Virus record (IMG/VR): IMGVR_UViG_3300010883_021048
Location: 1 to 64,000 of that record
Length of the DNA: 64,000 nt
Strand: one strand, 5' to 3'
Origin: a virus
Below the pieces are notes generated by a model, which saw nothing but the letters and a program-made list of their open reading frames with translations, was not told where the DNA came from and ran no database searches. Of the stretch, positions 791-48,564 are shown piece after piece (the first letter of the stretch is position 1; each line of letters starts with the position of its first letter). The translations under genes and the position numbers were made by a program.

Positions 791-3700
791 TTACTCAACT
801 GTTACAGACTCAGAATTAAATATAATCTCTCGTAACACTTCACCCTCAATAAAGGGTTTTGATGAAGTCATTGCAGTAGAGAGATTTAGACACGTCGTCC
901 TTGTAGCATCTGATACGGGCGCACCAGCGGAATCGACAAAAATGCATGTTACAGCAGAGCTGGTTTGCCCTTCCTTATTATATTCGTCGCCGTAGCTGTA
1001 GGTCTTACTATATAACCTTTGTTCCAGCATGTCTCTAAACTGTCCAAATGTGTCACCTCTATGAACCGTAGAGGGAGACAAATGGTCACAATTCATATAT
1101 CCATACTTAAAGCCAGCCGGATGGAGTCCAATACCGTACGCCAATCCGCTAGCGGTGAAACCTGCGCCGGCGTTTGACCAAGTTGCAATATACCTGTCAG
1201 GGGACATGTCTATTTTCTTCCTATTTTGTCTGCCATAACCAGCAAACACTGCAAAGAATGTTCTAAATGATTTTACCGGTACATCCCGTCTGCTTGTGGA
1301 GGTGAATGCGCCGAGGACACTGCCGGTGCCGGTGTCAGAGGCAAAGTTTAAAACGTTTGCCATATTTTTTATTCCGCCGATTGCGGATGACCATAGCGAT
1401 AGATTAGAGGCGCCAGCAGCGTCTATTTTTGCTTCTATGGCTAATTTTGACAGATGGTTTATTCCATCAGGTGATTGTCCAGGAGCGAAGATATATTGAC
1501 CGGGATCTTCGCCGAACTGGTTGCTCAGCGTAACTGGGGCGCTCCCAGAGAGCTGTGAAGGAGCACCGTTGCCTATAGAGAGCCCACCATTCGCACGAAG
1601 ATTATTTATATTTCGGCCCGTAAGTCTTGAAACATTAGAATATTTGCTTTCAAACGGAAATGAGTCAGCCCACGTGCCGGAAAAAGCGTAGCCTATTCCG
1701 GTGAAGAGGCCGGCTGCTGAGTAGGTGTCATAGACCGCGGCGCTGGAACTAGCGATCTTCGCTGAGGGGAAATGCATATTTACAACCGTACTACTACCCG
1801 GCCCCGAAGGCGTATAGAATTCATCGATTTCAGCTATTTGAAACGGGTCCTGTATTAGCGTATCATAAAATACTTGACTATTCTCTGCAGAGCGTACGAA
1901 TCTTTGAAAGCTTCCGCTAAAAGTTAAGCTACCGTCTTTTACTGAACCAGCTACGCCTCTTGTATATCCTGTGACCGGGCTGCTTTGTATAGTAAGAATG
2001 GATCCCGTAATATGCTCTGACAGATAGCTTGAACCGTACTCTGATTCCGCGTCGACCATAAACTGGTCCAGAACAGGTTCGCCAACCGCTTCATGAACAG
2101 CGGATGATCTTAATTTCTGGGTTGAGCTGTTGGAGTGATGTTTACCGTTTCTTAAAAAAGTACCGTATAGTACTATCTTGCTAGGACCAGCTAGCATCGT
2201 CAAACCATGAGATGGTTCATACGGGTCTTCAAGATTAATTTCAGCGTCAGGTCTTGGAAAACCATTTGCGTCAACATCACCAGCTATAGCGGTACCATCT
2301 CGGCCAGATGCTGTATAATCCCATACACCGTATTTCTTAGAATGTCTGTTGTTAGGTAATCCAGAGCCAGGGTTCCATCCAGGCAGTGATGGTTGTACAC
2401 CTAGTATTAACTTATCACTTGGCTGCAGTATATACAGGGCGTCGTTAGCTTGACTTGTGGGACTACCTTTTGAACCGGAGACTTGTGTTCTATATGATAT
2501 TGTTTGTAAAGTAGGCTTGTCGTTGTAGCCGGGAGGTGCCGGTGTTTTTATTCCGAGTACTGTACCAGCGGTGTCGACATCCGAACTGACGTTGTAGAAA
2601 GGAGACGCACCGAAAGAGAAGGGTCTGGTAGCGACTACCTGCTTTTGATTTACTGCTGAAGCTTGACCTACAAACATTCGGCCTGAATTAATTCCTTTCT
2701 GATCAGGTCCAGGGGTAAAGCCGCCTTCGACAATGGCGGCAGAGAACCTTCGATGGTATCTTTTCGCAGAAAGAGCTGTCTGGTACGCTTGACCGTTAGT
2801 CCGGTTTGATTGATTATTCGTCACGATACCAGCTGTACCATCAGTACCCGCGTAGTTGTTGGCGTAATAACAACGATCTTGTGGCTCGTGGTATGATCTA
2901 TTCGGTCCGGTGTTGGTTGTCTCCTTGCTATAAAACATGACATATGGATCTGGAGCTGTGAATAACCAAAAACCGCCAGGTTCTACGTCACTAGGAGGAA
3001 TAGACCTTACAGGAACGTCTATCTTAAAATCTTTACGGTAATTTAAATATTGACGCTTATAAACGTTTGCCTGTAAGGGTAAAGAAGCGGACTCTCTGCC
3101 AGGGGACTCCAGAGGCCTCCAACATGTTGATGCGGTCATCAGCGTAAAGCCACACCAGTTATCTGGAATGTCTGGGTTTACACCTTGATGCTTATCACCA
3201 GTTGTCAACCGTATGTTTAGATCACGACTGAGGCCACTATCTAGCCAGCTAGCAGGAGAAGATTTATCAACTCTAAATGAACCATATTTTACTAAATCTG
3301 GAACTCTATTGATTACCGGTGTTCCACTTGCAAGATATGCGGGGGTTGATATAACTGAGAACCCTGAGCCTGCTGGTACTTTTGATGGAATAGCGTTATC
3401 AGCGAACTTCCACCCTTCTACTTCATCGTAGTCGACAACAGTAGGGTTGCCAGTGTACGTATCTAATGAGTATGCTGTACCTGGATGAACTGGGGCGTTG
3501 GCTCCATCCGGCGACGTGGTGTCGGAATCTTGTGAACCAGATAATGCGTAACGGGCAGCAAAGAGAGGTCCTGTTCGGTTTCTAGTAGCAGAATCGTTTT
3601 CTATCTCTAAGTCCCACTGACGCCCCTGTTTGGCGGTAGGAAGATAAGCAAACTGCCCCTGGTAGGAGTCAGGCAAGTCCGAAAACATTGATATATTATT

Positions 3701-6700
3701 GGCGTTGCCTTTGGGGATGACACGCTTAATATTTTCAATATTCGCGGGGATAATTGACCAACCAATATCTGGATACACAGCATATTTCATGGCTTGACCA
3801 AATAAAACCGCTCTTCGAGGGGCGCCGGTACCGCCAGAGCCTTTGAAAAGCTGTTTTTGAAACACTAAGTTGTGAGCTGATCCTGATGCGTACGTCATGG
3901 CGCTCGGGTCTGTCCATAAGGTATCGACGTATGAATCAGCTGCGTTTACGTAGCCGTAATGTGTCATTTGACCAAACGTTATTATCTCTCTAGATGTTGA
4001 TCCAGAAATTGGGATCGTAGAGTTAACAGTCATGACACCGTCAGTGATCTTGCCGTTTGAGTAGTACTCGTCAAACCTCGCGTCCATTGCCGTCTTGCCG
4101 TAATCTATACGGTTATCAGCTAAGTCCTGGAGTTGCGGCGTAAATGGTGCGCCACTGTTCACGATGTTCTTCTTAAGGGTGTTAGAGTTTGTTCTTATGT
4201 ACGGCTGCATTGCTCCTTGATAGGGAGCTATGGGAAACATTACTAGATCAGAGCCTACGCTAAGTTTATATTGTTGAACTATTGGAGGACGAGAAGCTAT
4301 CGACTGTCTTAATAAGAAGAATGAATCAGCTCTCCAAAATGGCGTACCTCCCGTTGGATCCTGCTCGTCGGCGGCAGTCTCGGGATTCAGCCATGTGTTC
4401 ATACCAGGATGCTCTTTATTAGGTTGTAGTACTAGATGAGGACCACCCTTGGTGGCACTAGTGGCCAAAGATGCATCAGGATAAGAACCTAACGCGGTGA
4501 GTGCCGGTAAGCTGCCTGTCACTACGCCGTTAACGCCTCCGGCCAAGACGGGCATATATGAAACAGGTCCTTTCACGCTGCTATCACCAACTAATAGACG
4601 AGAGGTATTTGTCTGGGGTCGTGCTGGTTCGACATAACTCGAGCCGCGAGGTCCAATAGAAGTTTTCAGAAAGATAGTTCCGGAGTACGTTCCTCGGGCG
4701 CTGTTGTGCTCGACTTTAATGGTACCAGGACGAGACCGAAGTCCGTACTGACCTGTAGCGCTAACCCCAAGGCGGTTCTGTGTTATAATAGAATTTAAAT
4801 TGTCTGCAGAGCTCGACATATACATATCGGTCGGCGCCATCGTTCTATCATACGTTTCGATATCTCTAACGTTTGAGCCGTTAATAAACGAAGCTCTAGT
4901 TGATGAAACGTAGTTAGGGTATAAAACCTGTTGACTTGTAAGGAGGCCCGTCGGTTGACCGGAGACCTTAACTTGTTGGTCGATATACTGCGTGGAACCG
5001 GGAACTGAGGAGTTATCTAGGTCTGGTATTTTGTACCCAAGAGAGTGAGGTCCAGAATCTTCAATCGCGGCGCCAAACTCGAACGAAACACGCTCAAGTA
5101 AAAACGGGGCGTTGATGTATTTACTCATATCGATGAGTTGTCCGGCTTTTGCCTCGTATTTTTGGTGTATAGGAAAGCCGTAGTTCGACGTTGGAGATGC
5201 TCTTTGACTTAAAGGTGCAAGCACTTTATCTGGCTCGTCTAGTGGCTGATCTGTAAGAATAGAAAAACCAGAAGTTCCTGCAAAAGCAACAGATGAATCA
5301 TCAAGTACCCTGAACGACTGTATTTCTGCGCTTCTCTGAATCTGGCCGGGGCGGAGGGTACCGTTCCATGAGCCAGTTGCAACTGCCAAAGGTGTCTGGA
5401 CTATGAACTCGTTATTCTTGCCTTCAGTCTCCCACTGCTTTGTATCGAAATTAAAGTATGCTATAGATGTTATTTTACCAGTTGCTACTCCATCTACATT
5501 TCTGTCGACACCTATTGTAGAATCAGATGTTGGACTTAAGTCTATAGTGATGGCAATATGGTCAGACATTTTTTGCTGAAGGTCTGGATACACTGAGGCA
5601 TCGACGGCAGGAGTTATTTTATCAACCAAAGAATTTGAATCGTCAAACGGAGCGACGGTGCCGCCAAGAAAATCTTTGTCTTTAGACGTCGTTATAGGAG
5701 AATTTCTAGATGAAAGATTTAGCAATCTAGTTTCTTTATGTGATAAACCACGCTTCGGCTGCCCAGGAGCAACTAGTCTTTTATCCCATGGCGTATTGTG
5801 GACGTCCCTAAAGAACTTTCTTGGATTTCTTACATCACCACGGAGAGGACCTTGTGGATCTTGAGCCAAGACGTTGGAACCTGAAAACAGTTTAGCTGGT
5901 ATCATTTCAGGAAACATCATCATTTCGTTAGATGTGCTTAAAGAACCAGACATATAGCTGTATGCCTCTTGATCGTTAAACGCAGTAGCGAGTATCTTGG
6001 GTTGCGCGGGATTAGAGGATATAGGATATGTACTTTTTGTATCGAATATCTGCTGAACGATACTAGGGGGCCTGTTGTTGAGCCCAGACTTGAAGTGATT
6101 TTTCCCTAAATGAGATTTAGCTATTAGATCTATTTCACTACCTGTCAGGTTCCCACTAAATACTACTAGCTCCGCAACTTCTACATCTCGTAAAAAGTCG
6201 GTTAAAGCAAAATTGTTGTTTACGCCGCCGTTTGGTTCTCCGTACCCTACATACACGTTGGGTGATGTAACATCTACTACTGGATCTGTCGAGTTGACTA
6301 TGGACAAGTCTAATAACTTGTTACCTAAGGCGGTAGAATATATAGCTCCGGCTCCAAGGGTTGGTCTTATAGTTGAGCCGCTCTTTGTAGTACTGGTATT
6401 AATAAATAACGTTATCCACTCATTAAGCGGAGTTGTTCCAGCTGCGACTGTCTGGACTGCTGCTGTACCGGATGCTGTCCTGTGCTTAAACTCTAACACG
6501 TTTGTACTAGTTAGCCCAACGCTGAATGTTGTTTTAGCTGTACCTGGTTCACCCACCATTAAAATTGACTGATTATTGTGGTTGCTTCCAACCTTTACCT
6601 TTAACATAAAGCAAAGTTTTCTACCGTCAATAGATGGGTTAAGGTTTGGACAGTTGGAATTTACAAGAAACTTACGAGTGACTGTAGAAGAAGAGTTACC

Positions 6701-7039
6701 ATCTAAAGGAAAACTAATTCCTCTTTGCATCATTGGAACTGTTAACCCAACATTACCGTATAGCTTCATGTCTGTGTATACAGTCTCGCCGTATATCTTA
6801 AAGTCTGTCAACTTTGCATCAGTGGTGTTAAATTTACCGTTTGATGAAGGGATACCAATCGCTATGTTATAGGGCTTATTAGAAGAAAAGTCACTTATAA
6901 AAGATCCGGATACAGCATTATCACCCGTAAATTTATTGAATCTTGTATACGAAAGAGTGGTAAACTTTTTGATACCTTGAGATGTTTGTACAGACGTTGA
7001 CAGGTCTGAAATAAACGGAGATTTTCTGTTATCTTTCAT
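791..7039 (-). CDS. Very large virion structural protein (2082 aa), LamG/concanavalin-like region near the N-terminus
   Basis: Long ORF in the baseplate/tail operon; LamG-like pattern (FMLKVK...SILMVG...FSVGL...PLNEWITL...VAELVVFSGNLTGSEI); at least 15 [S/T]GS motifs. Confidence 0.65.
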   Translation of the reverse strand: MKDNRKSPFISDLSTSVQTSQGIKKFTTLSYTRFNKFTGDNAVSGSFISDFSSNKPYNIAIGIPSSNGKFNTTDAKLTDFKIYGETVYTDMKLYGNVGLTVPMMQRGISFPLDGNSSSTVTRKFLVNSNCPNLNPSIDGRKLCFMLKVKVGSNHNNQSILMVGEPGTAKTTFSVGLTSTNVLEFKHRTASGTAAVQTVAAGTTPLNEWITLFINTSTTKSGSTIRPTLGAGAIYSTALGNKLLDLSIVNSTDPVVDVTSPNVYVGYGEPNGGVNNNFALTDFLRDVEVAELVVFSGNLTGSEIDLIAKSHLGKNHFKSGLNNRPPSIVQQIFDTKSTYPISSNPAQPKILATAFNDQEAYSYMSGSLSTSNEMMMFPEMIPAKLFSGSNVLAQDPQGPLRGDVRNPRKFFRDVHNTPWDKRLVAPGQPKRGLSHKETRLLNLSSRNSPITTSKDKDFLGGTVAPFDDSNSLVDKITPAVDASVYPDLQQKMSDHIAITIDLSPTSDSTIGVDRNVDGVATGKITSIAYFNFDTKQWETEGKNNEFIVQTPLAVATGSWNGTLRPGQIQRSAEIQSFRVLDDSSVAFAGTSGFSILTDQPLDEPDKVLAPLSQRASPTSNYGFPIHQKYEAKAGQLIDMSKYINAPFLLERVSFEFGAAIEDSGPHSLGYKIPDLDNSSVPGSTQYIDQQVKVSGQPTGLLTSQQVLYPNYVSSTRASFINGSNVRDIETYDRTMAPTDMYMSSSADNLNSIITQNRLGVSATGQYGLRSRPGTIKVEHNSARGTYSGTIFLKTSIGPRGSSYVEPARPQTNTSRLLVGDSSVKGPVSYMPVLAGGVNGVVTGSLPALTALGSYPDASLATSATKGGPHLVLQPNKEHPGMNTWLNPETAADEQDPTGGTPFWRADSFFLLRQSIASRPPIVQQYKLSVGSDLVMFPIAPYQGAMQPYIRTNSNTLKKNIVNSGAPFTPQLQDLADNRIDYGKTAMDARFDEYYSNGKITDGVMTVNSTIPISGSTSREIITFGQMTHYGYVNAADSYVDTLWTDPSAMTYASGSAHNLVFQKQLFKGSGGTGAPRRAVLFGQAMKYAVYPDIGWSIIPANIENIKRVIPKGNANNISMFSDLPDSYQGQFAYLPTAKQGRQWDLEIENDSATRNRTGPLFAARYALSGSQDSDTTSPDGANAPVHPGTAYSLDTYTGNPTVVDYDEVEGWKFADNAIPSKVPAGSGFSVISTPAYLASGTPVINRVPDLVKYGSFRVDKSSPASWLDSGLSRDLNIRLTTGDKHQGVNPDIPDNWCGFTLMTASTCWRPLESPGRESASLPLQANVYKRQYLNYRKDFKIDVPVRSIPPSDVEPGGFWLFTAPDPYVMFYSKETTNTGPNRSYHEPQDRCYYANNYAGTDGTAGIVTNNQSNRTNGQAYQTALSAKRYHRRFSAAIVEGGFTPGPDQKGINSGRMFVGQASAVNQKQVVATRPFSFGASPFYNVSSDVDTAGTVLGIKTPAPPGYNDKPTLQTISYRTQVSGSKGSPTSQANDALYILQPSDKLILGVQPSLPGWNPGSGLPNNRHSKKYGVWDYTASGRDGTAIAGDVDANGFPRPDAEINLEDPYEPSHGLTMLAGPSKIVLYGTFLRNGKHHSNSSTQKLRSSAVHEAVGEPVLDQFMVDAESEYGSSYLSEHITGSILTIQSSPVTGYTRGVAGSVKDGSLTFSGSFQRFVRSAENSQVFYDTLIQDPFQIAEIDEFYTPSGPGSSTVVNMHFPSAKIASSSAAVYDTYSAAGLFTGIGYAFSGTWADSFPFESKYSNVSRLTGRNINNLRANGGLSIGNGAPSQLSGSAPVTLSNQFGEDPGQYIFAPGQSPDGINHLSKLAIEAKIDAAGASNLSLWSSAIGGIKNMANVLNFASDTGTGSVLGAFTSTSRRDVPVKSFRTFFAVFAGYGRQNRKKIDMSPDRYIATWSNAGAGFTASGLAYGIGLHPAGFKYGYMNCDHLSPSTVHRGDTFGQFRDMLEQRLYSKTYSYGDEYNKEGQTSSAVTCIFVDSAGAPVSDATRTTCLNLSTAMTSSKPFIEGEVLREIIFNSESVTVE

Positions 7040-7965
7040 TAGTATTCACCAACCACCAGATTGTTGTTAAAGGCAATAGACCCGACGTCACTATTAAGTG
7101 ACACTCCTCTTGTGGCAGTCTTCAAAAAAGGATCAGAAATACTATCACATGATGAGCTGTTTAATAATCTTAACGCTAACATCATATCCTCGCTATTATG
7201 TGCCATTATAGAAGAATATACCTTACTATGATAATCGGTCTCTATATGAGGCAGTTCAGGAGGTGTGGATATATCTTGATATGCCTGTAGCGCTATAATC
7301 GTCGATGATTCTTCAACTGTTGGAAGTGTTAAAGGAGAATCTAAAAACGATGGTAAGGTTGACTGATTTATAAACCACGAGTCAGTTATCTCTACACTAC
7401 CCCAAGGTCTTTCAGACGAAGAACCAACGACGGAACCTTTTATTGCGTGACCTTCGTACTTCGAGTCGACATCACCAAGAATTTGCCTTCTAATATCTAG
7501 TGGCTCGATGACTCCATCATATTCATGATCTGGCAGTGATCCTATATTCCATAGATTAACAGGCCACATAAATTCATTTTGATCTTGCAAATAAGCTACG
7601 GGATCAAACGAAGTCATGTCAGCATATGGTTCACCTTGCGGGGTCTCAGGTGGTTGTCCGAAAGCTAGCCTCTCTAGTGAAAAGGATATGACTTCTTTCA
7701 CAGGAGGTTCAGCGGCTGAGCCACCCATATCACTAAGCGTATTGTTTATTGTAATGGAGTCGTCAAACGTCTCTCTAGACAATAACTTGCCATTTCTATG
7801 TAGCTCGAGTCTATCAGCAGATCCCATTCGTGGAAGAAGGCTGGTTGCATATGACGTAAAGCTGTCTGAATTGACTCCTTGATAGAAGTATTCTGCAGAT
7901 CCAGATAGTGTGGCTGTTGAGCCCTTTGTTACACTTCCGCTTTTTACTCTTTGACTTTCCGGCAT
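7039..7965 (-). CDS. Hypothetical virion protein (308 aa)
   Basis: Tightly coupled between two structural genes (1-bp overlap and 2-bp gap); no recognisable enzyme motif. Confidence 0.6.
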   Translation of the reverse strand: MPESQRVKSGSVTKGSTATLSGSAEYFYQGVNSDSFTSYATSLLPRMGSADRLELHRNGKLLSRETFDDSITINNTLSDMGGSAAEPPVKEVISFSLERLAFGQPPETPQGEPYADMTSFDPVAYLQDQNEFMWPVNLWNIGSLPDHEYDGVIEPLDIRRQILGDVDSKYEGHAIKGSVVGSSSERPWGSVEITDSWFINQSTLPSFLDSPLTLPTVEESSTIIALQAYQDISTPPELPHIETDYHSKVYSSIMAHNSEDMMLALRLLNSSSCDSISDPFLKTATRGVSLNSDVGSIAFNNNLVVGEY

Positions 7966-34389: not shown

Positions 34390-34395
34390 AAGATG

Positions 34396-35232: not shown

Positions 35233-35301
35233 ATCTAACTCCAAATACCTGTAAATATATTAAAATAGCGTGAGCTATTTGTAATGGTTATCAATAAACC
35301 T

Positions 35302-35330
35302 ATTATATCGTAGCAGAAGTACATGTACAT
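35302..35330 (-). promoter_or_regulatory. Putative sigma70-type (early) promoter ATGTAC-17-TATAAT
   Basis: Intergenic; same CGATATAATA -10 context and TGTAC -35 at the same spacing as 22402-22430. Confidence 0.6.
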
Positions 35331-35388
35331 ACCAAAAATCAGACACATGCCTTAAACTTAAATTGCTACAAACTAGCTTCGATAGCGA

Positions 35389-36339: not shown

Positions 36340-36341
36340 TG

Positions 36342-37361: not shown

Positions 37362-37369
37362 AAAAATTC

Positions 37370-38641: not shown

Positions 38642-38666
38642 TTGTTATATCCCTTATGATCATATT

Positions 38667-40276: not shown

Positions 40277-42204
40277 TTTTCGTTTATGTCCCTGAATGCT
40301 TTTGGATGATTAGTGTTAATTGTTATATGCGGAACGCTACATGAGAAATCTACTTTTTCATGAAACACCCAGCCACCGAGTTCAGAACTAAGACGAGAGC
40401 TTAAAGCATCTATATCTTCATCCGTAACTTCAGACCATGGCTTATCAAACATCACGTTGTTTTCAGAAGTATCTTCAGTGTCATGTCGATATTGACTTTT
40501 CCAAAAAGACGCCCAATGTAGTTTGTACTGCTTTATTTTTCTAGATATATCGTACCAGGAATAGTGGTGGACTGAAGGTAACTGATCTATAGCTCTTTGA
40601 AACCAATCTTGGTATGCTAGCACAGCGTTATTATTTCCTGACAACCCGGCAGCACGAATATTGTGAGCTTGTTCGTTATAAAATCCTATGTGGGGAATTC
40701 TTTCTTTTGTTTCTGTATGGATGTAATCACATGTGTCAGTGCCTAAAGCAGCGAATATATTCCCTTCATCATCGAAACGCTGTAGCTCATTCGGAATTCC
40801 TTGTGTAATGAAATCTAGATTTCGACTTAGTCTCCATTTCCACGGGTTAACATCCATTCTTATTTTTTCATCGCCTCCCCAATATTCAATAACGGGTAAC
40901 GATACAACATCACAGTGTACAGGAAATGCCCTGAGTAGCTGATGTACTTTTTCATAGTCGTTTTCGTGCACTACTTCATCAGCGTCCATTTGCCAACAAA
41001 AATCGCTGGTGCAATAACTTCTGGCAGTAGCCTTTAGTTTTCCATCTGACTCGTAGGCAAAAGAAGGGTGATCGTTTAAAACAGGGTGCTGATATACTTT
41101 AAGCCTTCCGTCACCTTGAGCAGCAGACATTGCTTTTAATTCTTCCCATGTATCATCATCAGATCCACCATCCACCACTACAACTTCGTGACAGAAGCCA
41201 AGCATAGAAGTAACGGTCGCTTGCCACGGGTAGTTCATTCTGTTAGCATTTCTTACTGTCGTGTAACCGCTGACTGTTGATACATGATTTGATATGGATT
41301 TGATTGCTCTCCAGAATCGTTCTCGAGATGCGTATAAATACGACATCATATCGATATGTACTCCAGTGAACCACTCTTCCTTTGCATGCTGTACATCATC
41401 ATTAAGAATTAATTTGCAGCCTAATGCTTTTGCTTCTATAACCATCCTGGGACATGTGTCACCACCGCGTGGCATATACACGAAACCTTCAGATGTAGAA
41501 AGCTTTTGTAGCAGCTCATCATATGGAAGACCCCAGACGACTTCGTAGTCTAGATTGTTTTTCTTACAATAGTCTTCTGCATCTTCGAATCCTTTGATCC
41601 AAGATTCTGAGCCTAATACGATCCAGCCTTTTTTATCATCTTTATTCAAAGAATCTTTTACTGAATTCACATAGAGAAAAAAGCTTTCGTCGAATACGCT
41701 GCTTAGTACTACTGAGTCATTTTTTTCCAAAAATGGAAACCGTTCAAGATATCTTTTTTCTTGACTTTCACTCATCCACCAGAGACTCTTTGCTCCATGA
41801 AAGAACGCTGATATCATCTTACCATGAATTGACTCATGACAGTCACAGTCTTTCCCTGTTTCATTCCTGTGTTTCTCAATGCTTCTATATGCGCAGAATT
41901 TATAATCACATTCTACAATGGAATATGATAAGTTCCCTATTATGCTGGGAATTAGGTTTGGTCTCATTGTAGAAAAATTACAAAATACCCAATGCTTATC
42001 CGATCCAGCCTTAAGAAGATTCATGCTGATATCTTTAGATTTAATTTTTTGTACTACGATATCATTGGCCGAGGTTATCAAAGCTTCAGCTGTAAGTTCA
42101 GCTCCACCAACATAATCTTCCACGAACATATCTGAAACGAATATAACATCAGCGTTAGTGTCAATAGACAATGTACCGGCTGTATTGAAAGGACTGTTAA
42201 ACAT
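40273..42204 (-). CDS. Bifunctional glycosyltransferase (N-terminal GT4-like domain fused to a GT2 domain)
   Basis: GGAELT...KGFEDA...DTCPRMVIEAKALGC (GT-B), then VVVDGGSDDDT...QMDADE (GT-A). Confidence 0.8.
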   Translation of the reverse strand: MFNSPFNTAGTLSIDTNADVIFVSDMFVEDYVGGAELTAEALITSANDIVVQKIKSKDISMNLLKAGSDKHWVFCNFSTMRPNLIPSIIGNLSYSIVECDYKFCAYRSIEKHRNETGKDCDCHESIHGKMISAFFHGAKSLWWMSESQEKRYLERFPFLEKNDSVVLSSVFDESFFLYVNSVKDSLNKDDKKGWIVLGSESWIKGFEDAEDYCKKNNLDYEVVWGLPYDELLQKLSTSEGFVYMPRGGDTCPRMVIEAKALGCKLILNDDVQHAKEEWFTGVHIDMMSYLYASRERFWRAIKSISNHVSTVSGYTTVRNANRMNYPWQATVTSMLGFCHEVVVVDGGSDDDTWEELKAMSAAQGDGRLKVYQHPVLNDHPSFAYESDGKLKATARSYCTSDFCWQMDADEVVHENDYEKVHQLLRAFPVHCDVVSLPVIEYWGGDEKIRMDVNPWKWRLSRNLDFITQGIPNELQRFDDEGNIFAALGTDTCDYIHTETKERIPHIGFYNEQAHNIRAAGLSGNNNAVLAYQDWFQRAIDQLPSVHHYSWYDISRKIKQYKLHWASFWKSQYRHDTEDTSENNVMFDKPWSEVTDEDIDALSSRLSSELGGWVFHEKVDFSCSVPHITINTNHPKAFRDINEK

Positions 42205-42328
42205 ATGGCTTTACCTCACTCTAAACTATATTAGAGAGTATTCAGGTATTGTTTACGTCAACTTTTTTTGATTATTTTCTTGTACAAAGCTCGGATCGTC
42301 AGCTATTATATTCTGTATTCAGTATCCC

Positions 42329-42410
42329 AGTAATCAGTTAATCAGTTATCTAATATACAGTTAATCTATAATCTATAATCTATAATACAGTTAATCTATA
42401 ATCTATCTAG
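42329..42410. repeat. AT-rich tandem repeats (TAATCAGT x2; TAATCTA x3 + x2; 21-mer TACAGTTAATCTATAATCTAT x2)
   Basis: Read directly: TAATCTA at 42362-42382 (x3) and 42392-42405 (x2); 21-mer at 42356-42376 and 42386-42406; located in the largest intergenic gap (42205-42418). Confidence 0.85.
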
Positions 42411-42418
42411 TACTATTA

Positions 42419-45400
42419 TCATACATAATATCCACTTAACTTAACGCTGTAACTAAGATATCCAGCAGTTGCGTAACCGTTGGTCTGGGTAGCATCACCT
42501 GTTTGTGCATATTCATAAAATATACTGGAAGAACTATCATAGATAACTTTATATCCCATATAGATTTTGCTACCAGTTGTTAATGTAACAGCCATGGCGC
42601 CTACACTACTCAGGTCGACATAATAAGATGTGCCTGGTTCTAAAGCGGCAATTTCCACACCAGCTTGATGATCTAGCATTTTATTTCCGCCATCGGCAAG
42701 AAGAGAGTCGCTTATATAGCTGGTGCCGGCATCGGCATTAGTGATATAAGACTCGGTAGGCCCTACTTTAGCGATGCTTATTAAGACATCTGCTGCCGCT
42801 GTAGCGGCGGCGTTGTTGGGTCTTAGTTTATGTTCACCATGACATGAAACCGTCATTCCAGTAATCACAAGGTTTGCCGGGCATGCCCATCCCATGCTAT
42901 TATACTGCTCAAATCTTTCAGTCGTAGAAGCGGGCTGCCATTTATAGGTACCGCTGGTGGAACCGTTCAACGTCGTGGATTGGTTTCTAACTTCGAATCC
43001 TTTGATATTATTCCAGTATGACACGTTCTTGTCACCAGTGGCTCCTAAGTTAGAAAATAAGTATCTACGAGCAGCGCCAGCACCGGTGCCATTAGTAATT
43101 TGGTTCGAGGAGTTGTTGACTAGTATATTTAATCTGTACTCATCTGTAGTAAATTTTTGTAATCTCTCTTTTGCAGCTGTAGTATATAACTGCACATCTT
43201 TCAACTTAGCGACGGCTGACTGAGCGTCAAGCTCTGGAGTATTATCAAGATTAAAAGTAAATCTGGTTATGAGACCATCATCCATTGTGATTGTATCGCC
43301 ATCCGCGGATAGAATAATATCACCAGCCGCGTCCAGCGTTATATTTGTGGTTTTTGATTTAACAAAATCTGTTGATAATTTACCACCGACTATAACATCA
43401 CCTACGGAATCCACTGTGGTAATCGCTATAGTACCATCAAGTGACTTAATAACGTTATCACCTAATGTAAGCTCTCCGTCTATCTTCGTATTTCCTGAGC
43501 CGTCAAAAGTGATCCCACTCGTCGCACCAGCATCTTTTATGTTATTACCAGCGACTGTAAGGTCACCCTCTATCTTCGTGTTCGCTGAGCCGTCAAAAGT
43601 GATTGTGTTAGCCGCGCCAGAATCTTTTATGTTGTTTCCGACAACGGTAATGTCACCACCAACCCGTATATCATCGCTAAACATTACCATGGTTGGAGAA
43701 ATTATCATCTTAACTGTTGGAGCTGCTGCGGCCGGAGCTCTAACAAAGAATGACATAGAAGAAGGAGATTTTGCTGTACCAGTATGATTAGCTGTGGCGT
43801 TCGCTTCTATATATGCTCCAACACGCTCTGACTCCGCAGTAAGCTGTGAGTCACTGCTCCACCATTGTATTCTACCCAGCGAATCGCCTAGTACTATAGC
43901 TGGACTTGAATGAGTATTAGAACCCCAGGTTACAAGATTTAAAGTAGGAGGGTTCCACAAACCGCCGGGCTTATTAGCCACCAGAGTCAAAGAGCCTGAC
44001 GGCATCTTTGTGCCTATAAGGTACTCACTGTTATCAACTTTTGGCCAACCAGCACCAGCCCCGGGTGTTGAACCAGATAGCATAATAATAGCGCCTTGGC
44101 CATCTATTCTGACTCTAGGTCTGGTAGAATTATCGTTGCCACTTTCATCATACATTCTAAAAGACATGTGTCCAGTACCAGTCGACTGCTTTTTAGACAC
44201 TGTGATATTAGCAGTATGCTTGTTAGGAGTAAATGCACTAGATATGTCAAAAGCTAATTGTGAATATACAGTACTTCCGCCGGCAGCAGAATTACCAAGT
44301 AGTAAATTCGCCTTCGTCAAATTTGATGTAAGCTGATCTGTCGTAGCATTCGTATGCTCAATATGAAAGCTGCCAGTTGGGTCCTGTGACCTGGGCAGAT
44401 TCGATGTCGGCCAGGTAGCGCCGCCACCTACACCGATTGATGTCGATGCTCCGGCTGAGTTGAATGTCATTGCCACCGTATTATCTTGGATCACACTACT
44501 ACCGACAGCCGCGCCTGTGATTCTAAGTGGCTTTGTCCCATGAGGTGAAACACCCATATGCCAACCGCCCGTGTTTTGAACACCAGTGTTTGACTTAAAG
44601 TCGAGCGTGAGTATTGGAGCGTTATCAGTTACAACAGTATCATGCCGTGAACGTAACATTACCCAAGAATTACGATTGGCTTCCGATGCGCTTACAACTA
44701 AAGACGCCGCCGGGTCATATGCATCTGTTCCAAAGCCACCACCACCGACTCTTACAGAGCGCATGTTAGCGTCAATCATTATCGCGCCATTTTCCTGTGC
44801 TGTTGAATTCTTTCGTATAGAAAAGTCAGCCGCGGAATTGGGACTAACAAATATACCAGGCTTATTTGTTACTGCTCCTCCACCATAATTAAATAAGATT
44901 GATGTAGTATTACCAGCGCCGTTTGCATCTAATTCAATGCCTACTCCGCCAGTATCGGAAGACACTCTAAGCGGGTATCCAATTTGATCGGCAAGATTAC
45001 CGTCAGTGGATGGACCAATTTGCACACCGTTTGGTGAATATAGTCTATTACCTGTAAACACATCACCTGTAAATTCTGCTCTGCCATTGGCACCAGATAA
45101 AACAAGGAATGCCCCCGCGGCCAATTGGTCAACGCCGGATGCGTTTGATTGGACCCTAAACTTTAAGTCTGTCCCTTGCTGATAACTACTAGTCCAATCT
45201 TGCGCAGCTACAGCTGTTATCATCGCTCCTGTATGAGGTGCCCCGGTTGCAGGACCCATTCCAGACCATATAATATCACCTATAGGATCGTGTGTCTGTA
45301 TACTGGTATCATTTCTGGTTAGCTGAAACGAACTAGATCCATCCGCTTGATTTGCCTGTATTGAACCGGTGATGTTAAATCCACCAAGGTGCTCAATAGA

Positions 45401-45454
45401 GCCTGTAATGCTAGCCCCGTGAGATGAGCTTAGTAATCTTGTAAATACTGACAT
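42419..45454 (-). CDS. Tail fibre/receptor-binding protein (1011 aa)
   Basis: G/S/T/N-rich beta-repeat composition; repeated G.I.W/F...GA.I.A.A modules; 30-aa GD.TV.GNNIKD repeats. Confidence 0.7.
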   Translation of the reverse strand: MSVFTRLLSSSHGASITGSIEHLGGFNITGSIQANQADGSSSFQLTRNDTSIQTHDPIGDIIWSGMGPATGAPHTGAMITAVAAQDWTSSYQQGTDLKFRVQSNASGVDQLAAGAFLVLSGANGRAEFTGDVFTGNRLYSPNGVQIGPSTDGNLADQIGYPLRVSSDTGGVGIELDANGAGNTTSILFNYGGGAVTNKPGIFVSPNSAADFSIRKNSTAQENGAIMIDANMRSVRVGGGGFGTDAYDPAASLVVSASEANRNSWVMLRSRHDTVVTDNAPILTLDFKSNTGVQNTGGWHMGVSPHGTKPLRITGAAVGSSVIQDNTVAMTFNSAGASTSIGVGGGATWPTSNLPRSQDPTGSFHIEHTNATTDQLTSNLTKANLLLGNSAAGGSTVYSQLAFDISSAFTPNKHTANITVSKKQSTGTGHMSFRMYDESGNDNSTRPRVRIDGQGAIIMLSGSTPGAGAGWPKVDNSEYLIGTKMPSGSLTLVANKPGGLWNPPTLNLVTWGSNTHSSPAIVLGDSLGRIQWWSSDSQLTAESERVGAYIEANATANHTGTAKSPSSMSFFVRAPAAAAPTVKMIISPTMVMFSDDIRVGGDITVVGNNIKDSGAANTITFDGSANTKIEGDLTVAGNNIKDAGATSGITFDGSGNTKIDGELTLGDNVIKSLDGTIAITTVDSVGDVIVGGKLSTDFVKSKTTNITLDAAGDIILSADGDTITMDDGLITRFTFNLDNTPELDAQSAVAKLKDVQLYTTAAKERLQKFTTDEYRLNILVNNSSNQITNGTGAGAARRYLFSNLGATGDKNVSYWNNIKGFEVRNQSTTLNGSTSGTYKWQPASTTERFEQYNSMGWACPANLVITGMTVSCHGEHKLRPNNAAATAAADVLISIAKVGPTESYITNADAGTSYISDSLLADGGNKMLDHQAGVEIAALEPGTSYYVDLSSVGAMAVTLTTGSKIYMGYKVIYDSSSSIFYEYAQTGDATQTNGYATAGYLSYSVKLSGYYV
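43440..43660 (-). repeat. Intragenic 90-bp (30-aa) direct repeats
   Basis: tatcttcgt..t.c.ctgagccgtcaaaagtgat at 43481-43513 and 43571-43603; protein GDITVVGNNIKDSGAANTITFDGSANTKIE / GDLTVAGNNIKDAGATSGITFDGSGNTKID / GELTLGDNVIKS. Confidence 0.85.
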
Positions 45455-48400
45455 TAATCTTGATCCTCCAAAGGAGTTAGTCCCATTTTGTATTTTTTAC
45501 CGGTCAAATTATTAACAACAACCAACATATCTGGTTCCTCATATATAGTCCAATTACCACGATCATTTCTTAGATGAAGGTCGCCGGTATAGACATTGGC
45601 CCACCGGAAACTAGGCGACCCTAAATCGTAAGTATTATCAGCACCCGGGTATATGCTTCCTGTAACTTCCATTCTACCGCTGGTGGTACTGACAACAACA
45701 GATCCACCAGAACTGTTATTATGCAACCTTAATTTCTTAACCGAGTCTTCTGTAAGGCCGTAGATATATCTGGAATCATCTTGAAATCTTAGCTGATTGT
45801 TATTCTCAAATCTTGCGTTTGTACCAGAGCTGCCGGCCGCGAGTCTAAACACCTCTCCAGCAGAATTATGAAATCCTAAAGTGACGTCACTCACCATTTT
45901 TATTCTACTAGCACCTGAGCTTACAGATCCGGTGACAAAATCTAGACTACCACTTAGACCTAATACAACTTTATTATTTGTGGTACCCTTTATCTGAACA
46001 GGCGGAAACTGACCATCATAAGTGTTTATTATCGCGCCGGCGCCTGGGCTTAGAGTGCCGTATGCTGATCCTTGAGGCCCAGTGCTATAAGCATGATTCA
46101 AGCTCGATAAGTAAAAGGGCATTTCAGCTCTAAGCGTACCTGATACGTGAACATCCCCGCCGAATAGCGCTGTGGCTCTGGTTACCGGGCTTGAGCCGTC
46201 AGATCCAAGTGCACCACTGACGAAAAAGTATACATCATCTCCAATTGCAGTTGTATGACGTGGTGGTCCAGATGAAAGTATTCCAGTATCAAAAGAGAAT
46301 GAACCAGACGTCTTAACATATGAAGGCTCTCCTCCGCTTACGCTGAAGACCTCGGTGTTATCCGTAACAGATAGTGAGTTTAGATCAGTTAGTGTAACAG
46401 GTCCCGTATTATTGTCTTGGAACTTTAGATTATTCCCGTCTCTAAAAGCTCTAGTCGTCGAGTCGCTAAAGTGTATGTATGCCGTGGAAGAAGCAAGAGT
46501 TAAGTTATCTAAGTTTAGCACTCCGATGTCAGCAGTTCCGTTAATCTTTGTATTACCAGAAACTACCAGATCTCCTGCAACTAGAGTAACACCTCTAGTG
46601 TTCGTACCTCTAGAGCTAACGGATCCGCTTAATAGTGTTCGTACATCCCGGTGACGGGTCATAGAAAATAAGCTGTTCATCTGTGTAGCATTAGCGGCAG
46701 CCCCAAGGACTATAAATCCTTCCCTGCTTGTGCCGGCGCCGTATTCAGCGGAAGAAGATAACAGTATTGTAGGTCCACCAACAGCCTCGTTAGAAGAAGC
46801 ACTCATCATTAACAACGAAGTTGCAGGGCTCCCCGCCGCTCCCGGAACACCAGGATCGGAACCAACTTTTACACTAGCACCGCCCATGAAGAATGTGATG
46901 TCTCTATTGTCAGCTACCCCTGCAGCTGTTTTACCGTACACATAGCTTTTGCTGTTTTTAGGGAAGTACACCACTCCTTGACTACCATCACTACGACCAA
47001 CATTTAGCAATCCACCAAACCCGCCAACTGGACCTGTGATATCAACACCATTTGTATCATGTCCAGCGACTGTGTGGTTACCTAAAAATAACTTTTTATC
47101 TTGATCAATGTGAACGCCAGTGTTAACTTTAAACCTTAACGCTTCCGTTGTTATTAGTTTTATATCACCGTCGTTATTAGACATAGACATATGTGTAAGT
47201 GAACCAACTACAGATGCAGTGATTATTAGGTCAGCGCCCAAGCTCGGCAAAGAAAAACCGGCAGCTTCGATAACTACCGGCTCTGAATCAGCCAATGTAG
47301 TAACTACACCATCATTAACATCTTTTCTACCCGCGCGCCAGGAATTATTAACGCTTCCTCTACCGAACGTAAGGGCCTGTGGAGCCACGCTAGACCCTGA
47401 TGCGATAGCTATGCCACCATTACTATTGGTAGTAGTAGAACCTGACCCCATGAGGATCACAGGGTCTTCTACGCGTAAGTTCTCTACCCCTATTGAAACA
47501 GTGGAGCCAGAAACGTTTAAATCTCCTACAATGGTAACGTTTTTATTGAATGTGGCATCACCGGAACCGCTTAGGTAAATAACTGTGGCATTGCTTGCAT
47601 CTTTTATTTCATTACCATTAATTGTTAGATCGCCTGCAAGGGCAGTGTTTTGACTTCCGTCAAAGGTGATTGCTGCAGCGAGCCCAGAGTCGAATATATC
47701 ATTTCCGTTGACCAGCAAGTCTCCGATAACTGTGACTGCCCCGGAACTACCTAAAGTAAGGCACGCTCCACTTGCTCCCTTAATATCATTTCCTTTGACA
47801 GTTAAGTCACCTTCTACTGTAGTATCAACACCCGTAAAACTAAGCGCCAGTCCGGCAGATCCAGTAATACCATTGCTGGTTAGTGTAAAGTTTTTACCAA
47901 CAGATAAGTTACCACCTACATCTAAATCACCAGGAATCGTAAATGTTGACTCCGGTTCAATGCTTAGGTTACCAGATATGTGCAAATCACCGTCAAATAA
48001 TGCTAACCCTCGGTCATTTGAGCCCTTGACTCCTCTTGATCCCGAAACGTGAAAAAAGACATCACGATTAATAGCATTACCATATGTGAAGGTGTTGGAG
48101 GCACCTGCTACATGTTTAAAAGATATAGTGCCTGTACCGTTGGAACCGAGTGTCGGGGTGGTGGGATCAGCAAGAAATAACGCTTTTCCTGTGGTGGGGT
48201 TATTAGTAAATCCCTGGATTAGTTTGTTAGGTACCCTAAGATCTCCAAGGACTGTGTCATCAACTTCTACAACACTTCTTTCAGCCCAAAGCGTTCCGCT
48301 TACGACAACGTCACCCATAAATAGAACTGAGCTGCCATCGGTTCGCCCAGTTCCGTCAATGGCAGACATATTTCTAGAACCAGATACCGCCATCCAGATA

Positions 48401-48564
48401 TCGGTACCGACGTTAGTCAGAGATACCGAATTTCCTCCACCATAGTTTGTCGCTCTAGACCCACTGTAGAAAAGTAGCCCTAAGGTTGGTTTATCCCAAG
48501 CTGTAGAACCAGAACCAACAATAGTATGTGTTCTTAGTCTGTCTGCTCTAAAATCTTTTGCCAT
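45454..48564 (-). CDS. Tail fibre protein (1036 aa)
   Basis: Repeated GD.(V/L).(V/I)SG motifs; C-terminal DNTYDLGSPSFRWANVYTGDLHL...WTIYEE...NNLTGKKYK typical of fibre C-termini in marine myoviruses. Confidence 0.75.
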   Translation of the reverse strand: MAKDFRADRLRTHTIVGSGSTAWDKPTLGLLFYSGSRATNYGGGNSVSLTNVGTDIWMAVSGSRNMSAIDGTGRTDGSSVLFMGDVVVSGTLWAERSVVEVDDTVLGDLRVPNKLIQGFTNNPTTGKALFLADPTTPTLGSNGTGTISFKHVAGASNTFTYGNAINRDVFFHVSGSRGVKGSNDRGLALFDGDLHISGNLSIEPESTFTIPGDLDVGGNLSVGKNFTLTSNGITGSAGLALSFTGVDTTVEGDLTVKGNDIKGASGACLTLGSSGAVTVIGDLLVNGNDIFDSGLAAAITFDGSQNTALAGDLTINGNEIKDASNATVIYLSGSGDATFNKNVTIVGDLNVSGSTVSIGVENLRVEDPVILMGSGSTTTNSNGGIAIASGSSVAPQALTFGRGSVNNSWRAGRKDVNDGVVTTLADSEPVVIEAAGFSLPSLGADLIITASVVGSLTHMSMSNNDGDIKLITTEALRFKVNTGVHIDQDKKLFLGNHTVAGHDTNGVDITGPVGGFGGLLNVGRSDGSQGVVYFPKNSKSYVYGKTAAGVADNRDITFFMGGASVKVGSDPGVPGAAGSPATSLLMMSASSNEAVGGPTILLSSSAEYGAGTSREGFIVLGAAANATQMNSLFSMTRHRDVRTLLSGSVSSRGTNTRGVTLVAGDLVVSGNTKINGTADIGVLNLDNLTLASSTAYIHFSDSTTRAFRDGNNLKFQDNNTGPVTLTDLNSLSVTDNTEVFSVSGGEPSYVKTSGSFSFDTGILSSGPPRHTTAIGDDVYFFVSGALGSDGSSPVTRATALFGGDVHVSGTLRAEMPFYLSSLNHAYSTGPQGSAYGTLSPGAGAIINTYDGQFPPVQIKGTTNNKVVLGLSGSLDFVTGSVSSGASRIKMVSDVTLGFHNSAGEVFRLAAGSSGTNARFENNNQLRFQDDSRYIYGLTEDSVKKLRLHNNSSGGSVVVSTTSGRMEVTGSIYPGADNTYDLGSPSFRWANVYTGDLHLRNDRGNWTIYEEPDMLVVVNNLTGKKYKMGLTPLEDQD

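Follow-up and report, generated by a model that had tools for sequence, protein, structure and literature searches.

Motif enrichment in the virion proteins

This locus raises the question of why the structural proteins of an uncultured jumbo phage are so rich in the tripeptide [S/T]-G-S, and whether the glycan genes lying between the structural genes act on it. The answer favored here, with a probability of about one half, is that an O-glycosylation pathway encoded by the phage and confined to the cytoplasm most likely uses the tripeptides as its acceptor sites. The DNA analyzed (the window) comprises positions 1 to 64,000 of IMG/VR record IMGVR_UViG_3300010883_021048, and every gene whose coordinates are given below lies on the minus strand.

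The [ST]GS counts of 15, 14, 5, 14, and 6 that an earlier note on this DNA gave for five structural proteins were reproduced exactly on recounting, and all five proteins were 2.4- to 7-fold above composition-matched shuffles (500 shuffles each). The 2082 aa virion protein (positions 791 to 7039) has 15 sites, 11 of them with a hydrophobic residue before the motif, against a shuffle mean of 4.0 (p = 0.002). The corresponding values are 14 and 2.1 (p = 0.002) for the 1173 aa baseplate protein (7968 to 11489), 5 and 1.2 (p = 0.012) for the 517 aa baseplate protein (11495 to 13048), 14 and 3.2 (p = 0.002) for the 1036 aa fibre (45454 to 48564), in which 10 sites follow a hydrophobic residue, and 6 and 2.5 (p = 0.05) for the 1011 aa fibre (42419 to 45454). 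When the 308 aa baseplate-module protein (7039 to 7965; 2 sites) is included, the six virion proteins together contain 56 sites where 13.7 would be expected. SGS and TGS rank first and second among the over-represented tripeptides of the window's virion proteins (expected count of at least 2), and in the outward-facing particle proteins of this phage and its relatives the ordered motif occurs at 4 to 6 times chance.

The enrichment is specific to the order of the residues, as the permuted motifs GS[ST], [ST]SG, and G[ST]S were not enriched, and SG[ST] was enriched only because SGS is common to both motifs. The permuted motifs, together with conditional preferences, also rule out a local S/T/G-rich composition as the cause. 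The preference for a hydrophobic residue at position -1 that had been reported held up (66% of the 56 sites versus 30% in the background). The 56 sites represent 48 distinct 9-mers with varied codons that track background use, which indicates that the motif acts at the protein level and rules out a DNA-level signal as its origin.

Within the particle the motif is unevenly distributed. As claimed, it is absent from the gp6-like baseplate wedge protein (13053 to 14897) and the gp25-like baseplate protein (14901 to 15398; Pfam GPW_gp25), and the enzymes, for which 0 to 2 sites each had been reported, have 0 or 1 each (8 in total versus 7.7 expected). The buried portal, tube, gp6, and tape measure proteins have 2 sites among them versus 5.3 expected; the tube has 0, the capsid has few, and the motif is not C-terminal. 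The proteins that carry it span unrelated folds, including LamG-like domains, fibres, sheath, and capsid. Outward-facing virion proteins bear a genuine tag, hydrophobic-[S/T]-[G, less often A or S]-S, which depends on residue order and acts at the protein level. It is found on fibres, the outer baseplate, the sheath, and capsid insertions, where a beta-strand is predicted to end or the loop after it to begin.

Conservation and structural setting of the sites

Site conservation was evaluated with two homologue sets, 16 homologues for the 1173 aa protein and 24 for the other set (mean identity, 55%). Position 0 was retained as S/T in 0.96 to 0.97 of cases, position 2 as S in 0.89 to 0.92, and position 1 as G/A/S in 0.98, versus 0.41 to 0.51 for non-motif Ser and 0.69 to 0.70 for non-motif Gly in the same sets. 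These alignments point to the motif hydroxyls, rather than the turn glycine, as the most constrained feature, with Gly apparently replaceable by Ala or Ser. This pattern supports the sequon reading because the hydroxyls are conserved above Gly.

The 1173 aa protein is predicted to contain two ConA/LamG-like jelly-roll domains, with a LamG-like domain at residues 165 to 320. It has a Pfam Laminin_G_3 match slightly below the curated cut-off (E = 6e-6), and Foldseek matched its AF2 model, which is poor except for the two domains (pLDDT 44), with jelly-roll lectin-like domains, among them that of pentraxin PTX3 (E about 1e-5 to 1e-6). Sequence and predicted fold thus both indicate a LamG/pentraxin-type jelly-roll. 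Sequence searches of the PDB with the fibre and 2082 aa proteins gave no match. The AF2 model of the 517 aa protein has a pLDDT of 68.8. Of the 10 sites in regions that the two AF2 models predict with confidence, 9 are at a strand end or loop start, which is a property of the models only. The earlier note had regarded burial of the sites as evidence against its proposal, but the models place them at predicted exposed strand-to-loop junctions of outward-facing proteins.

The same geometry is the starting point for the main rival to the sequon reading, a lineage-specific beta-hairpin idiom. According to this alternative, which we consider possible but rather unlikely, the motif is purely structural, forming strand-[S/T]-G-S-strand tight hairpins whose hydroxyls cap or hydrogen-bond the turn, and the island is unrelated: during infection it would alter a glycan of the host envelope (LPS or capsule) by way of the host lipid carrier, flippase, and ligase. 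G-S is a favored two-residue type II' hairpin loop, and in a pentraxin alignment the [ST]GS sites of the LamG-like domain coincide with the canonical turn glycines of the fold. That the sites are beta-turn positions and strand-loop junctions at which G-S is favored counts against the sequon reading. However, a positive-phi turn glycine predicts the opposite of the observed pattern, in which the hydroxyls on either side are retained even where Ala or Ser takes the place of Gly, and a structural idiom does not readily explain why one tripeptide dominates across unrelated folds.

Distribution of the motif among phages

The comparison set consisted of a 281-kb relative (G001) and three cultured phages, Flavobacterium phage vB_FspM_immuto (immuto), Microcystis phage Mel-JY01, and Rhodothermus phage RM378. 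Genome-wide, [ST]GS was 3.1-fold above expectation in the window, 2.6-fold in the 281-kb relative, 2.5-fold in immuto, 2.9-fold in Mel-JY01, and 2.6-fold in RM378, versus 0.64 in T4, 0.84 in phiKZ, and 1.3 in both KVP40 and P-SSM2. Both SGS and TGS are among the top four virion-protein tripeptides in all four relatives but not in T4, KVP40, phiKZ, or P-SSM2, the last of which has collagen-like top tripeptides. The homologue of the 2082 aa protein in the 281-kb relative (37% identity) has 10 sites versus 2.6 expected, and [ST]GS is 2.8- to 7.6-fold enriched in the baseplate proteins of 44 IMG/VR relatives with gp6 identities of 30 to 79%. As far as these sequences indicate, the enrichment is specific to the lineage. 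T4, phiKZ, and KVP40 rule out the motif being a generic feature of phage fibres.

The lineage specificity of the motif across unrelated folds supports the sequon reading and is difficult to reconcile with a purely structural idiom. Hairpin physics is universal, yet virion proteins of T4 and phiKZ show no excess (0.64 to 0.95), and the first residue of xGS is S/T in 8 to 14% of cases in those phages versus 48 to 66% here. Observations in other phages favor the structural explanation. HTVC008M proteins of at least 500 aa are 2.0-fold enriched with no match to the island's GT4a or GT4b glycosyltransferases or to Glycos_transf_1, P-SSM2 also has single proteins rich in [ST]GS despite having no GT4a/b match, and a TG[ST] site in the sheath of the present lineage is shared with both phages. 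The [ST]GS-rich proteins of these two phages without a GT4a/b match count against the sequon reading. P-SSM2 does have a glycosyltransferase match but only 1.3-fold enrichment, which rules out the notion that any glycosyltransferase island gives rise to the motif and is also in line with a structural origin.

A search for motif-rich relatives devoid of glycosyltransferases, which would have spoken against the original proposal, instead found the motif and a glycosyltransferase set together. The single weak negative is LR756508, in which GT4a is present, GT4b is absent, and genome-wide enrichment is 1.4-fold; even so, five open reading frames (ORFs) within about 10 kb downstream of its gp6 have 5 sites versus about 1.8 (hand sum). 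A search for further relatives of LR756508 recovered near-identical contigs only. Within the family the motif and the glycosyltransferases are not separable by correlation, as all 44 relatives keep the motif and all with enough upstream DNA keep the GT4 pair. The co-occurrence may therefore reflect a single inherited event, because no relative has one without the other.

It is also conceivable, though very improbable, that another lineage-specific reader recognizes the motif, such as a different Ser modification (e.g., phosphorylation) or an assembly chaperone, or that the motif forms a hydroxyl-rich surface that binds a host polysaccharide. The case for a trans-acting reader (lineage-specific, fold-independent, hydroxyls conserved) names no particular reader, and the window clade has a PrkA-type Ser kinase module and a GroEL-apical-like protein. 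However, apart from a weak GroEL-like match, neither has a homologue in immuto or Mel-JY01 (blastp E < 1e-4), whereas the glycosyltransferase pair is common to all motif-rich lineages.

The glycan island

The island spans positions 18982 to 42204 (23.2 kb), between the fibre and baseplate genes. The earlier note had it directly bracketed by structural genes, which does not hold on the baseplate side. Between GT4b and the gp25-like gene there are a 105 aa ORF, a gp55-like late sigma factor (17941 to 18678; PHROG 234; conserved in immuto, Mel-JY01, and LR756508), a 122 aa ORF, and a conserved 611 aa protein (15724 to 17559). The count of the T4 late promoter TATAAATA, considered as a marker of late expression, was at chance level. 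On the opposite flank, a 643 aa protein with a GT2 domain and an N-terminal half without assignment (40273 to 42204) adjoins the fibres; it is conserved beside them and 73% identical in the 281-kb relative. About 10 glycosyltransferases had been claimed, and nine have Pfam support; the tenth (286 aa; 28521 to 29381) has no family match.

Comparison with the 281-kb relative revealed that the flanks of the island are conserved and its core is swapped. The variable core (25521 to 36339), absent from that relative, encodes two B12-radical SAM enzymes, a GT90, the 286 aa ORF, an NAD-synthase-like PP-loop enzyme, a UDP-Glc/GDP-Man dehydrogenase, WcbI, a 282 aa ORF, and an Agl16-like GT4. On one side of it are genes for GDP-mannose 4,6-dehydratase, an Fcl-like reductase/epimerase, and a DegT-fold enzyme whose best family match is RfbH, a 3-dehydrase (22464 to 25524). 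On the other are Pfam-supported GT6, GT7C-like, GT11, and GT2 glycosyltransferases (36342 to 40276).

Each island protein has at most one hydrophobic 19-residue segment and none has a membrane span; thus, the island encodes no Wzx, Wzy, phosphoglycosyl transferase, or ligase. Pfam searches of the island likewise gave no match to initiating phosphoglycosyl transferase, flippase/transporter, polymerase, or ligase families. The multi-pass membrane proteins that are the hallmark of Wzx/Wzy- or ABC-dependent O-antigen and capsule loci are therefore lacking. O-antigen glycosyltransferases are also soluble, and so the absence of membrane proteins is compatible with remodeling of a host glycan, a role reportedly suggested for the LPS gene clusters of cyanophage P-SSM2. 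The position of the island between fibre and baseplate genes and beside a late sigma factor, without an initiating transferase, argues against that role.

The conserved GT4 pair and a TibC-type fusion

A PD-(D/E)XK nuclease (21509 to 22384) precedes a pair of GT4 genes across the lineage. The first gene of the pair, GT4a (20167 to 21342; Pfam), has the chlorovirus glycosyltransferase B736L as its nearest solved relative and small-molecule GT4 enzymes, e.g., MshA and BshA, as its best family matches. The second, GT4b (18982 to 20163; Pfam), has an E-X7-E motif that ends in D, with orthologues in immuto and Mel-JY01, a weak one in RM378, and none in LR756508. The trio is as old as gp6 in the lineage and, wherever the DNA extends far enough upstream, all relatives with 42 to 79% gp6 identity have it no more than 10 kb upstream of gp6.

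In RM378 and LR756508 the GT4 genes are among replication and nucleotide-metabolism genes, which counts against the sequon reading. One alternative, which we regard as improbable, is that the trio modifies phage DNA, with the pair glycosylating a hydroxymethylated base, the nuclease destroying unmodified DNA, and the protein motif being unrelated. The nuclease is always the first gene of the trio, the RM378 trio lies among replication genes, a ThyA-family gene is directly upstream in LR756508, and a divergent thymidylate-synthase-family gene (127 bits) of the 281-kb relative is a possible hydroxymethylase gene. DNA-decorating phage glycosyltransferases are documented in work cited in PMC12619734. 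However, a PF00303 gene is lacking in Mel-JY01 and RM378 although both have the pair, the pair forms one gene chain with the late sigma factor and the baseplate in the window clade, and DNA modification leaves unexplained both the motif and the large island with its GT6, GT11, GT90, and radical SAM genes.

A further argument against DNA as the target comes from Mel-JY01, in which a single 1226 aa protein joins a GT4b-like domain to a TibC homologue (E = 1.4e-69) that keeps all four iron-finger Cys. Mel-JY01 is thus predicted to encode a true TibC-type protein O-heptosyltransferase homologue. The fusion gene lies beside the gene for a 508 aa structural protein, which has the highest motif density among the structural proteins of Mel-JY01 (13 sites versus 2.5 expected), an arrangement that supports the sequon reading. 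PF01075 and PF21129 had no match in the window or the 281-kb relative, phmmer with the Mel-JY01 TibC module found no match in any of the window-clade loci searched, and no BAHT gene is present in the window, the 281-kb relative, immuto, or RM378. No motif-rich proteins flank the BAHT homologues of the huge phages LR756501 and LR756504, which counts against the sequon reading.

Comparison with known glycosylation systems

One system close to the proposed pathway is that of TibC and Aah (BAHT), cytoplasmic soluble enzymes that hyperglycosylate many Ser/Thr residues of the beta-rich surface proteins TibA and AIDA-I. Aah recognizes strand-end/loop-start geometry (PMC3835316), the arrangement that the AF2 models predict for the [ST]GS sites. 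Unlike the strict conserved tripeptide of the window phage, the Aah acceptors have no sequence consensus, and BAHT enzymes use ADP-heptose, whereas the island implies GDP-6-deoxyhexoses and others. The hallmark of BAHT enzymes, a TibC_1st N-terminal beta-barrel, a GT9-like domain, and a four-Cys iron finger, was found only in the relative Mel-JY01 and not in the window. The GtfA/GtfB O-GlcNAc transferase of serine-rich repeat adhesins is similar in having two adjacent GT4-type genes, acceptors that are S-x-S-type serine arrays of a surface protein, and a cytoplasmic reaction. However, its DUF1975 insertion was not detected in the window, where Pfam matches are of the Glycos_transf_1 type only; the GtfA/GtfB partner is non-catalytic, whereas GT4b keeps a catalytic-type E-X7-D motif; and its acceptors are long disordered repeats rather than isolated tripeptides in folded beta domains.

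As summarized in PMC12619734, Freeman et al. 2023 found that mycobacteriophage glycosyltransferases decorate their own virion proteins in the cytoplasm, the glycans being carried C-terminally by the capsid and tail-tube subunits. The window shares with actinophages the location of glycosyltransferases near structural genes, nine Pfam-supported ones lying between fibre and baseplate genes, but its motif is in fibres, baseplate, and sheath rather than at capsid or tube C-termini, the tube having none. Its gene set is also far larger than that of the mycobacteriophages and adds sugar-nucleotide synthesis. Chloroviruses and mimiviruses glycosylate capsid or fibrils with virus-encoded GMD, nucleotide-sugar enzymes, and soluble glycosyltransferases and no host lipid carrier. 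The window resembles them in its virus-encoded sugar-nucleotide enzymes, in gene clusters that vary by clade, and in the relatedness of GT4a to B736L; they differ in being giant viruses of eukaryotes, and chlorovirus glycans are N-linked at atypical sites. We know of no comparable tailed phage described with such a system.

Moraphages, aquatic jumbo phages with predicted Bacteroidota hosts, have four core glycosyltransferase orthogroups, the target of which the authors left between DNA, host, and virion, and they report no motif (PMC12619734). No enzyme of the window was labeled as a protein glycosyltransferase in NCBIfam, PHROGs, or the protein atlas, and neither the window nor the 281-kb relative has a member of a proven protein-glycosylating family, including DUF1975 proteins. 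This lack among the window enzymes counts against the sequon reading.

A proposed pathway and its implications

The earlier note had proposed that the motif is an acceptor sequon and that the island builds and attaches an O-glycan. Motif statistics, conservation, and relatives bear out its observational basis; glycan attachment is the part that does not follow from them, and we give the whole proposal an even chance. Sugar attachment, the identity of the priming enzyme, and the role of the glycan are the parts that we infer. A soluble transferase, either the GT4a/GT4b pair conserved across the lineage or another, would place the first sugar on Ser or Thr. Further soluble transferases, from the swappable island, would then extend it with phage-made GDP-6-deoxyhexoses and other activated sugars, and virions would exit the cell with a strain-specific glycan coat.

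The family to which this might apply comprises more than 580 IMG/VR contigs by gp6, including cultured immuto, Mel-JY01, and RM378. With somewhat less confidence than for the sequon reading itself, and a little short of even odds, it may be proposed that this large aquatic myovirus family runs a sequon-directed, fully phage-encoded, cytoplasmic O-glycosylation in which the GT4 pair primes the Ser/Thr of the tags, at hairpin starts, on every exposed virion protein (in Mel-JY01 along with the TibC-type enzyme) and the swappable island confers a strain-specific virion glycan "serotype."

To our knowledge, virus-encoded glycosylation of the particle is established for a few actinophages and giant eukaryotic viruses but not for T4-like phages or jumbo phages of aquatic bacteria, and we know of no phage for which a short acceptor motif has been defined. 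Should the motif prove to be structural only, the virion proteins of this large phage lineage would still have no stronger local sequence signature, and a structural explanation would be needed. The three cultured relatives make the sequon reading practical to test. If it is correct, the tripeptide would predict glycosylated virion proteins from sequence, the role of the large "LPS-like" islands in marine phages would become testable, and the adsorption, stickiness, and protease or grazer resistance of the particles would depend on a glycan made by the phage.

Excess of [ST]GS in the virion proteins

The [ST]GS tripeptide was previously proposed to be an O-glycan acceptor sequon on virion proteins that bracket a glycan island of ca. 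23 kb. The hand counts behind that proposal were exact: the 2082-aa virion protein, the 1173-aa and 517-aa baseplate proteins, and the 1036-aa and 1011-aa fibres have 15, 14, 5, 14, and 6 sites, respectively, versus shuffle means of 4.0, 2.1, 1.2, 3.2, and 2.5. The permuted motifs GS[ST], [ST]SG, and G[ST]S were at expectation while [ST]GS was in excess, and thus a composition rich in Ser, Thr, and Gly cannot account for the excess. A hydrophobic residue preceded 66% of the sites (background, 30%). As the earlier note had stated, the gp6-like baseplate wedge protein and the gp25-like protein have no sites; all non-structural proteins combined have 8, with 7.7 expected. In six virion proteins, SGS and TGS were the two highest-ranked tripeptides, in that order, of those with expected counts of 2 or more. 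The 56 sites represent 48 distinct 9-mers and codon use equals background, which places the signal at the level of protein, not DNA.

The window makes up the first 64 kb of a virus contig 73.7 kb long, and every gene between 791 and 62612 is on the minus strand. The minus-strand order begins with the PrkA-SpoVR-YeaH module, GDP-mannose supply genes, and PIN-PhoH, followed by the two fibres (1036 and 1011 aa), the 23-kb island (18982-42204), a gp55-like late sigma factor with three unknown ORFs, the gp25-like and gp6-like proteins, and finally proteins of 517, 1173, 308, and 2082 aa. The PrkA-SpoVR-DUF444 (YeaH) module (54419-58833) is complete and 81-88% identical in G001, a 281-kb relative; blastp found none in phages immuto or Mel-JY01. 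A 449-aa protein (49365-50714) fuses a PIN domain to PhoH; immuto and Mel-JY01 have PhoH only. With genes for a NUDIX protein, a mannose-6-phosphate-isomerase-type cupin, a cytidylyltransferase-like nucleotidyltransferase, a helicase, and a phosphomannomutase (58872-62612), the phage may itself provide GDP-mannose, or a different activated sugar, at the steps preceding GMD. No enrichment of the T4 late promoter TATAAATA was seen in the window.

Distribution of the motif among phages

Searching IMG/VR with gp6 yielded 56 close contigs; a profile search yielded 583. Proteins downstream of gp6 had 2.8 to 7.6 times the expected sites (44 loci, 30-79% gp6 identity). Distant cultured relatives, linked by ca. 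30% gp6 identity or by a shared GT4a, are Flavobacterium phage immuto, Microcystis phage Mel-JY01, and Rhodothermus phage RM378. Genome-wide observed/expected ratios were 3.1 for the window contig, 2.6 for G001, 2.5 for immuto, 2.9 for Mel-JY01, 2.6 for RM378, 1.4 for LR756508, 1.6 for HTVC008M, 1.3 for P-SSM2, 1.3 for KVP40, 0.84 for phiKZ, and 0.64 for T4, whose baseplate and fibre proteins have practically no [ST]GS. In G001, immuto, and Mel-JY01, the excess falls on sheath and outer baseplate proteins, on fibres and tailspikes, and on a few "structural proteins"; 2 sites, versus 5.3 expected, occur in the portal, tube, gp6, and tape measure combined. Across the lineage, 48-66% of GS dipeptides are preceded by Ser or Thr, versus 8-19% in T4, phiKZ, and KVP40. 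Enrichment, class restriction, and xGS preferences across phages led us to reject both a general trait of beta-rich phage proteins, given the low values in T4, phiKZ, and KVP40, and a by-product of any glycosyltransferase island.

G001 encodes two tandem sheath paralogues (116849-123134; 1062 and 1020 aa, 34% identical) that are far longer than T4 gp18 and have most of their [ST]GS sites in the extra domains. In P-SSM2 proteins of at least 500 aa (L136-L148), the most over-represented tripeptides are the collagen-like PTG, PGP, TGP, and GPT, not SGS or TGS; one 597-aa P-SSM2 protein has 15 [ST]GS versus 3.8 expected.

Constraint and structural location of the sites

In alignments of 16 homologues of the 1173-aa protein and 24 of the 517-aa protein (mean identity, 55%), position 0 was kept as Ser/Thr at a frequency of 0.96-0.97 and position 2 as Ser at 0.89-0.92, compared with 0.41-0.51 for the remaining Ser residues. 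Position 1 was kept as Gly at 0.82-0.86 (remaining Gly residues, 0.69-0.70) and as Gly, Ala, or Ser at 0.98. Sites pass through the series SGS, SAS, SSS, TSS, TAS, and TGS; Ser and Thr exchange freely at position 0, a small middle residue suffices, and the two hydroxyls are the most conserved feature. Judged from these alignments, the pattern is that of a putative recognition tag, because a positive-phi turn Gly would not give way to Ala or Ser with its neighbours fixed.

It is also possible, with a lower likelihood than virion glycosylation, that the motif is a structural idiom and that the island acts on host glycans. The 1173-aa protein has two jelly-roll domains of the ConA/LamG/pentraxin type, and when it is aligned with pentraxin the sites take the place of the turn positions that are canonical for this fold. 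Of the 10 sites in confidently modeled regions of two AF2 models, 9 are at the last strand residue or the first residues of the next loop, and two sites form two-residue hairpins. The site positions in the 1173-aa and 517-aa proteins are exposed as modeled. This strand-loop location fails to separate a tag from a structural element because a pure G-S turn would sit exactly there.

Fibres of immuto and Mel-JY01 have tandem forms, such as hydrophobic-TGS-hydrophobic-x-hydrophobic-SGS-hydrophobic. Residues 800-1000 of an immuto tailspike (L001:35281-38439) give a C-terminal match to trimeric autotransporter adhesin head repeats (BpaC, Hep_Hag; E = 6e-10).

Candidate readers of the motif

The motif is order-specific, has conserved hydroxyls, is confined to exposed virion proteins, and occurs on unrelated folds in a single lineage; in combination, these properties argue for a lineage-specific factor that would read it. 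The only lineage-wide candidate readers found were glycosyltransferases, and another kind of reader seems the least probable of the explanations considered.

A PD-(D/E)XK nuclease, GT4a (20167-21342, minus strand), and GT4b (18982-20163, minus strand) are orthologous across the window clade, immuto, and Mel-JY01 (26-34% identity, a depth equal to that of gp6). GT4a also occurs in RM378, next to a weak GT4b-like gene, and in LR756508, where GT4b is missing; the control phages lack both. In every relative examined (42-79% gp6 identity and enough upstream DNA), the GT4 pair is less than 10 kb upstream of gp6 and chained to the late sigma factor (17941-18678 in the window, between the pair and the baseplate genes); the order of pair, sigma factor, and baseplate genes is preserved down to 42% gp6 identity. 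That the pair instead glycosylates DNA is unlikely. In favour of that reading, the pair adjoins a nuclease and in two lineages lies among replication or nucleotide metabolism genes. In LR756508 (302656-306748), a ThyA-family gene, a PD-(D/E)XK nuclease, a 152-aa ORF, and GT4a form a row, a context that hints at a role for GT4a in DNA or nucleotide metabolism.

Mel-JY01 (PP395634) encodes a 1226-aa protein (L027:4750-8427), annotated "methyltransferase FkbM," in which a GT4b-like domain (2e-22 versus the GT4b profile built here) is fused to a complete module of the TibC/Aah autotransporter heptosyltransferase (protein O-heptosyltransferase) type. The alignment of the module to PDB 4rap (E = 1.4e-69) spans TibC residues 23-383 of 406 and includes all four of the iron-finger cysteines given in PMC4358343. 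TibC and Aah are cytoplasmic protein O-glycosyltransferases; the module is a TibC-type homologue by sequence. Directly ahead of this gene lies the one for the structural protein with the highest motif density in Mel-JY01 (13 sites versus 2.5 expected). This fusion is the strongest new link, albeit a predicted one, between the motif and protein glycosylation. No publication on Mel-JY01 turned up in the literature searched, and we know of no description of the fusion. Huge phages (636-735 kb) have TibC-type homologues 41% (LR756501, L269:20001-21170) and 37% (LR756504, L270:20001-21098) identical to the module, with no [ST]GS richness in the surrounding 40 kb.

We assign virion O-glycosylation at [ST]GS a probability of about 0.5. 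Against it are the turn positions of the sites, the lack of an enzyme of a proven protein-glycosylating family in the window clade, the nuclease and nucleotide metabolism neighbours of the GT4 pair, and single [ST]GS-rich proteins in P-SSM2 and HTVC008M, which lack the pair. No independent losses were found, and the co-occurrence of motif and GT4 pair may have been inherited just once.

Content and turnover of the glycan island

The earlier note counted about 10 glycosyltransferases in the island; nine have Pfam support and a tenth does not. The nine are two tandem GT4 enzymes, GT90, a further GT4, GT6, a GT7C-like enzyme, GT11, GT2, and a 643-aa GT2-like protein. Other enzymes are GMD, an Fcl-like protein, a DegT-fold enzyme closest to 3-dehydrases, two B12-radical SAM proteins, a sugar dehydrogenase, a PP-loop enzyme, and WcbI. 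No window enzyme carries a label proving a protein acceptor. Each island protein has at most one hydrophobic segment, and so the island is without a flippase or transporter, an initiating transferase, a polymerase, or a ligase.

The window island (22464-42204) and that of G001 (36771-50297), from phages with 77% identical gp6, share flanks comprising the 643-aa GT2-like protein, GT2, Fcl, the DegT-fold enzyme, GMD, and the nuclease-GT4a-GT4b trio, and their cores are fully swapped. From this comparison, the island appears to act like a swappable glycan cassette, and the pattern is that of a locus probably under diversifying selection for glycan structure.
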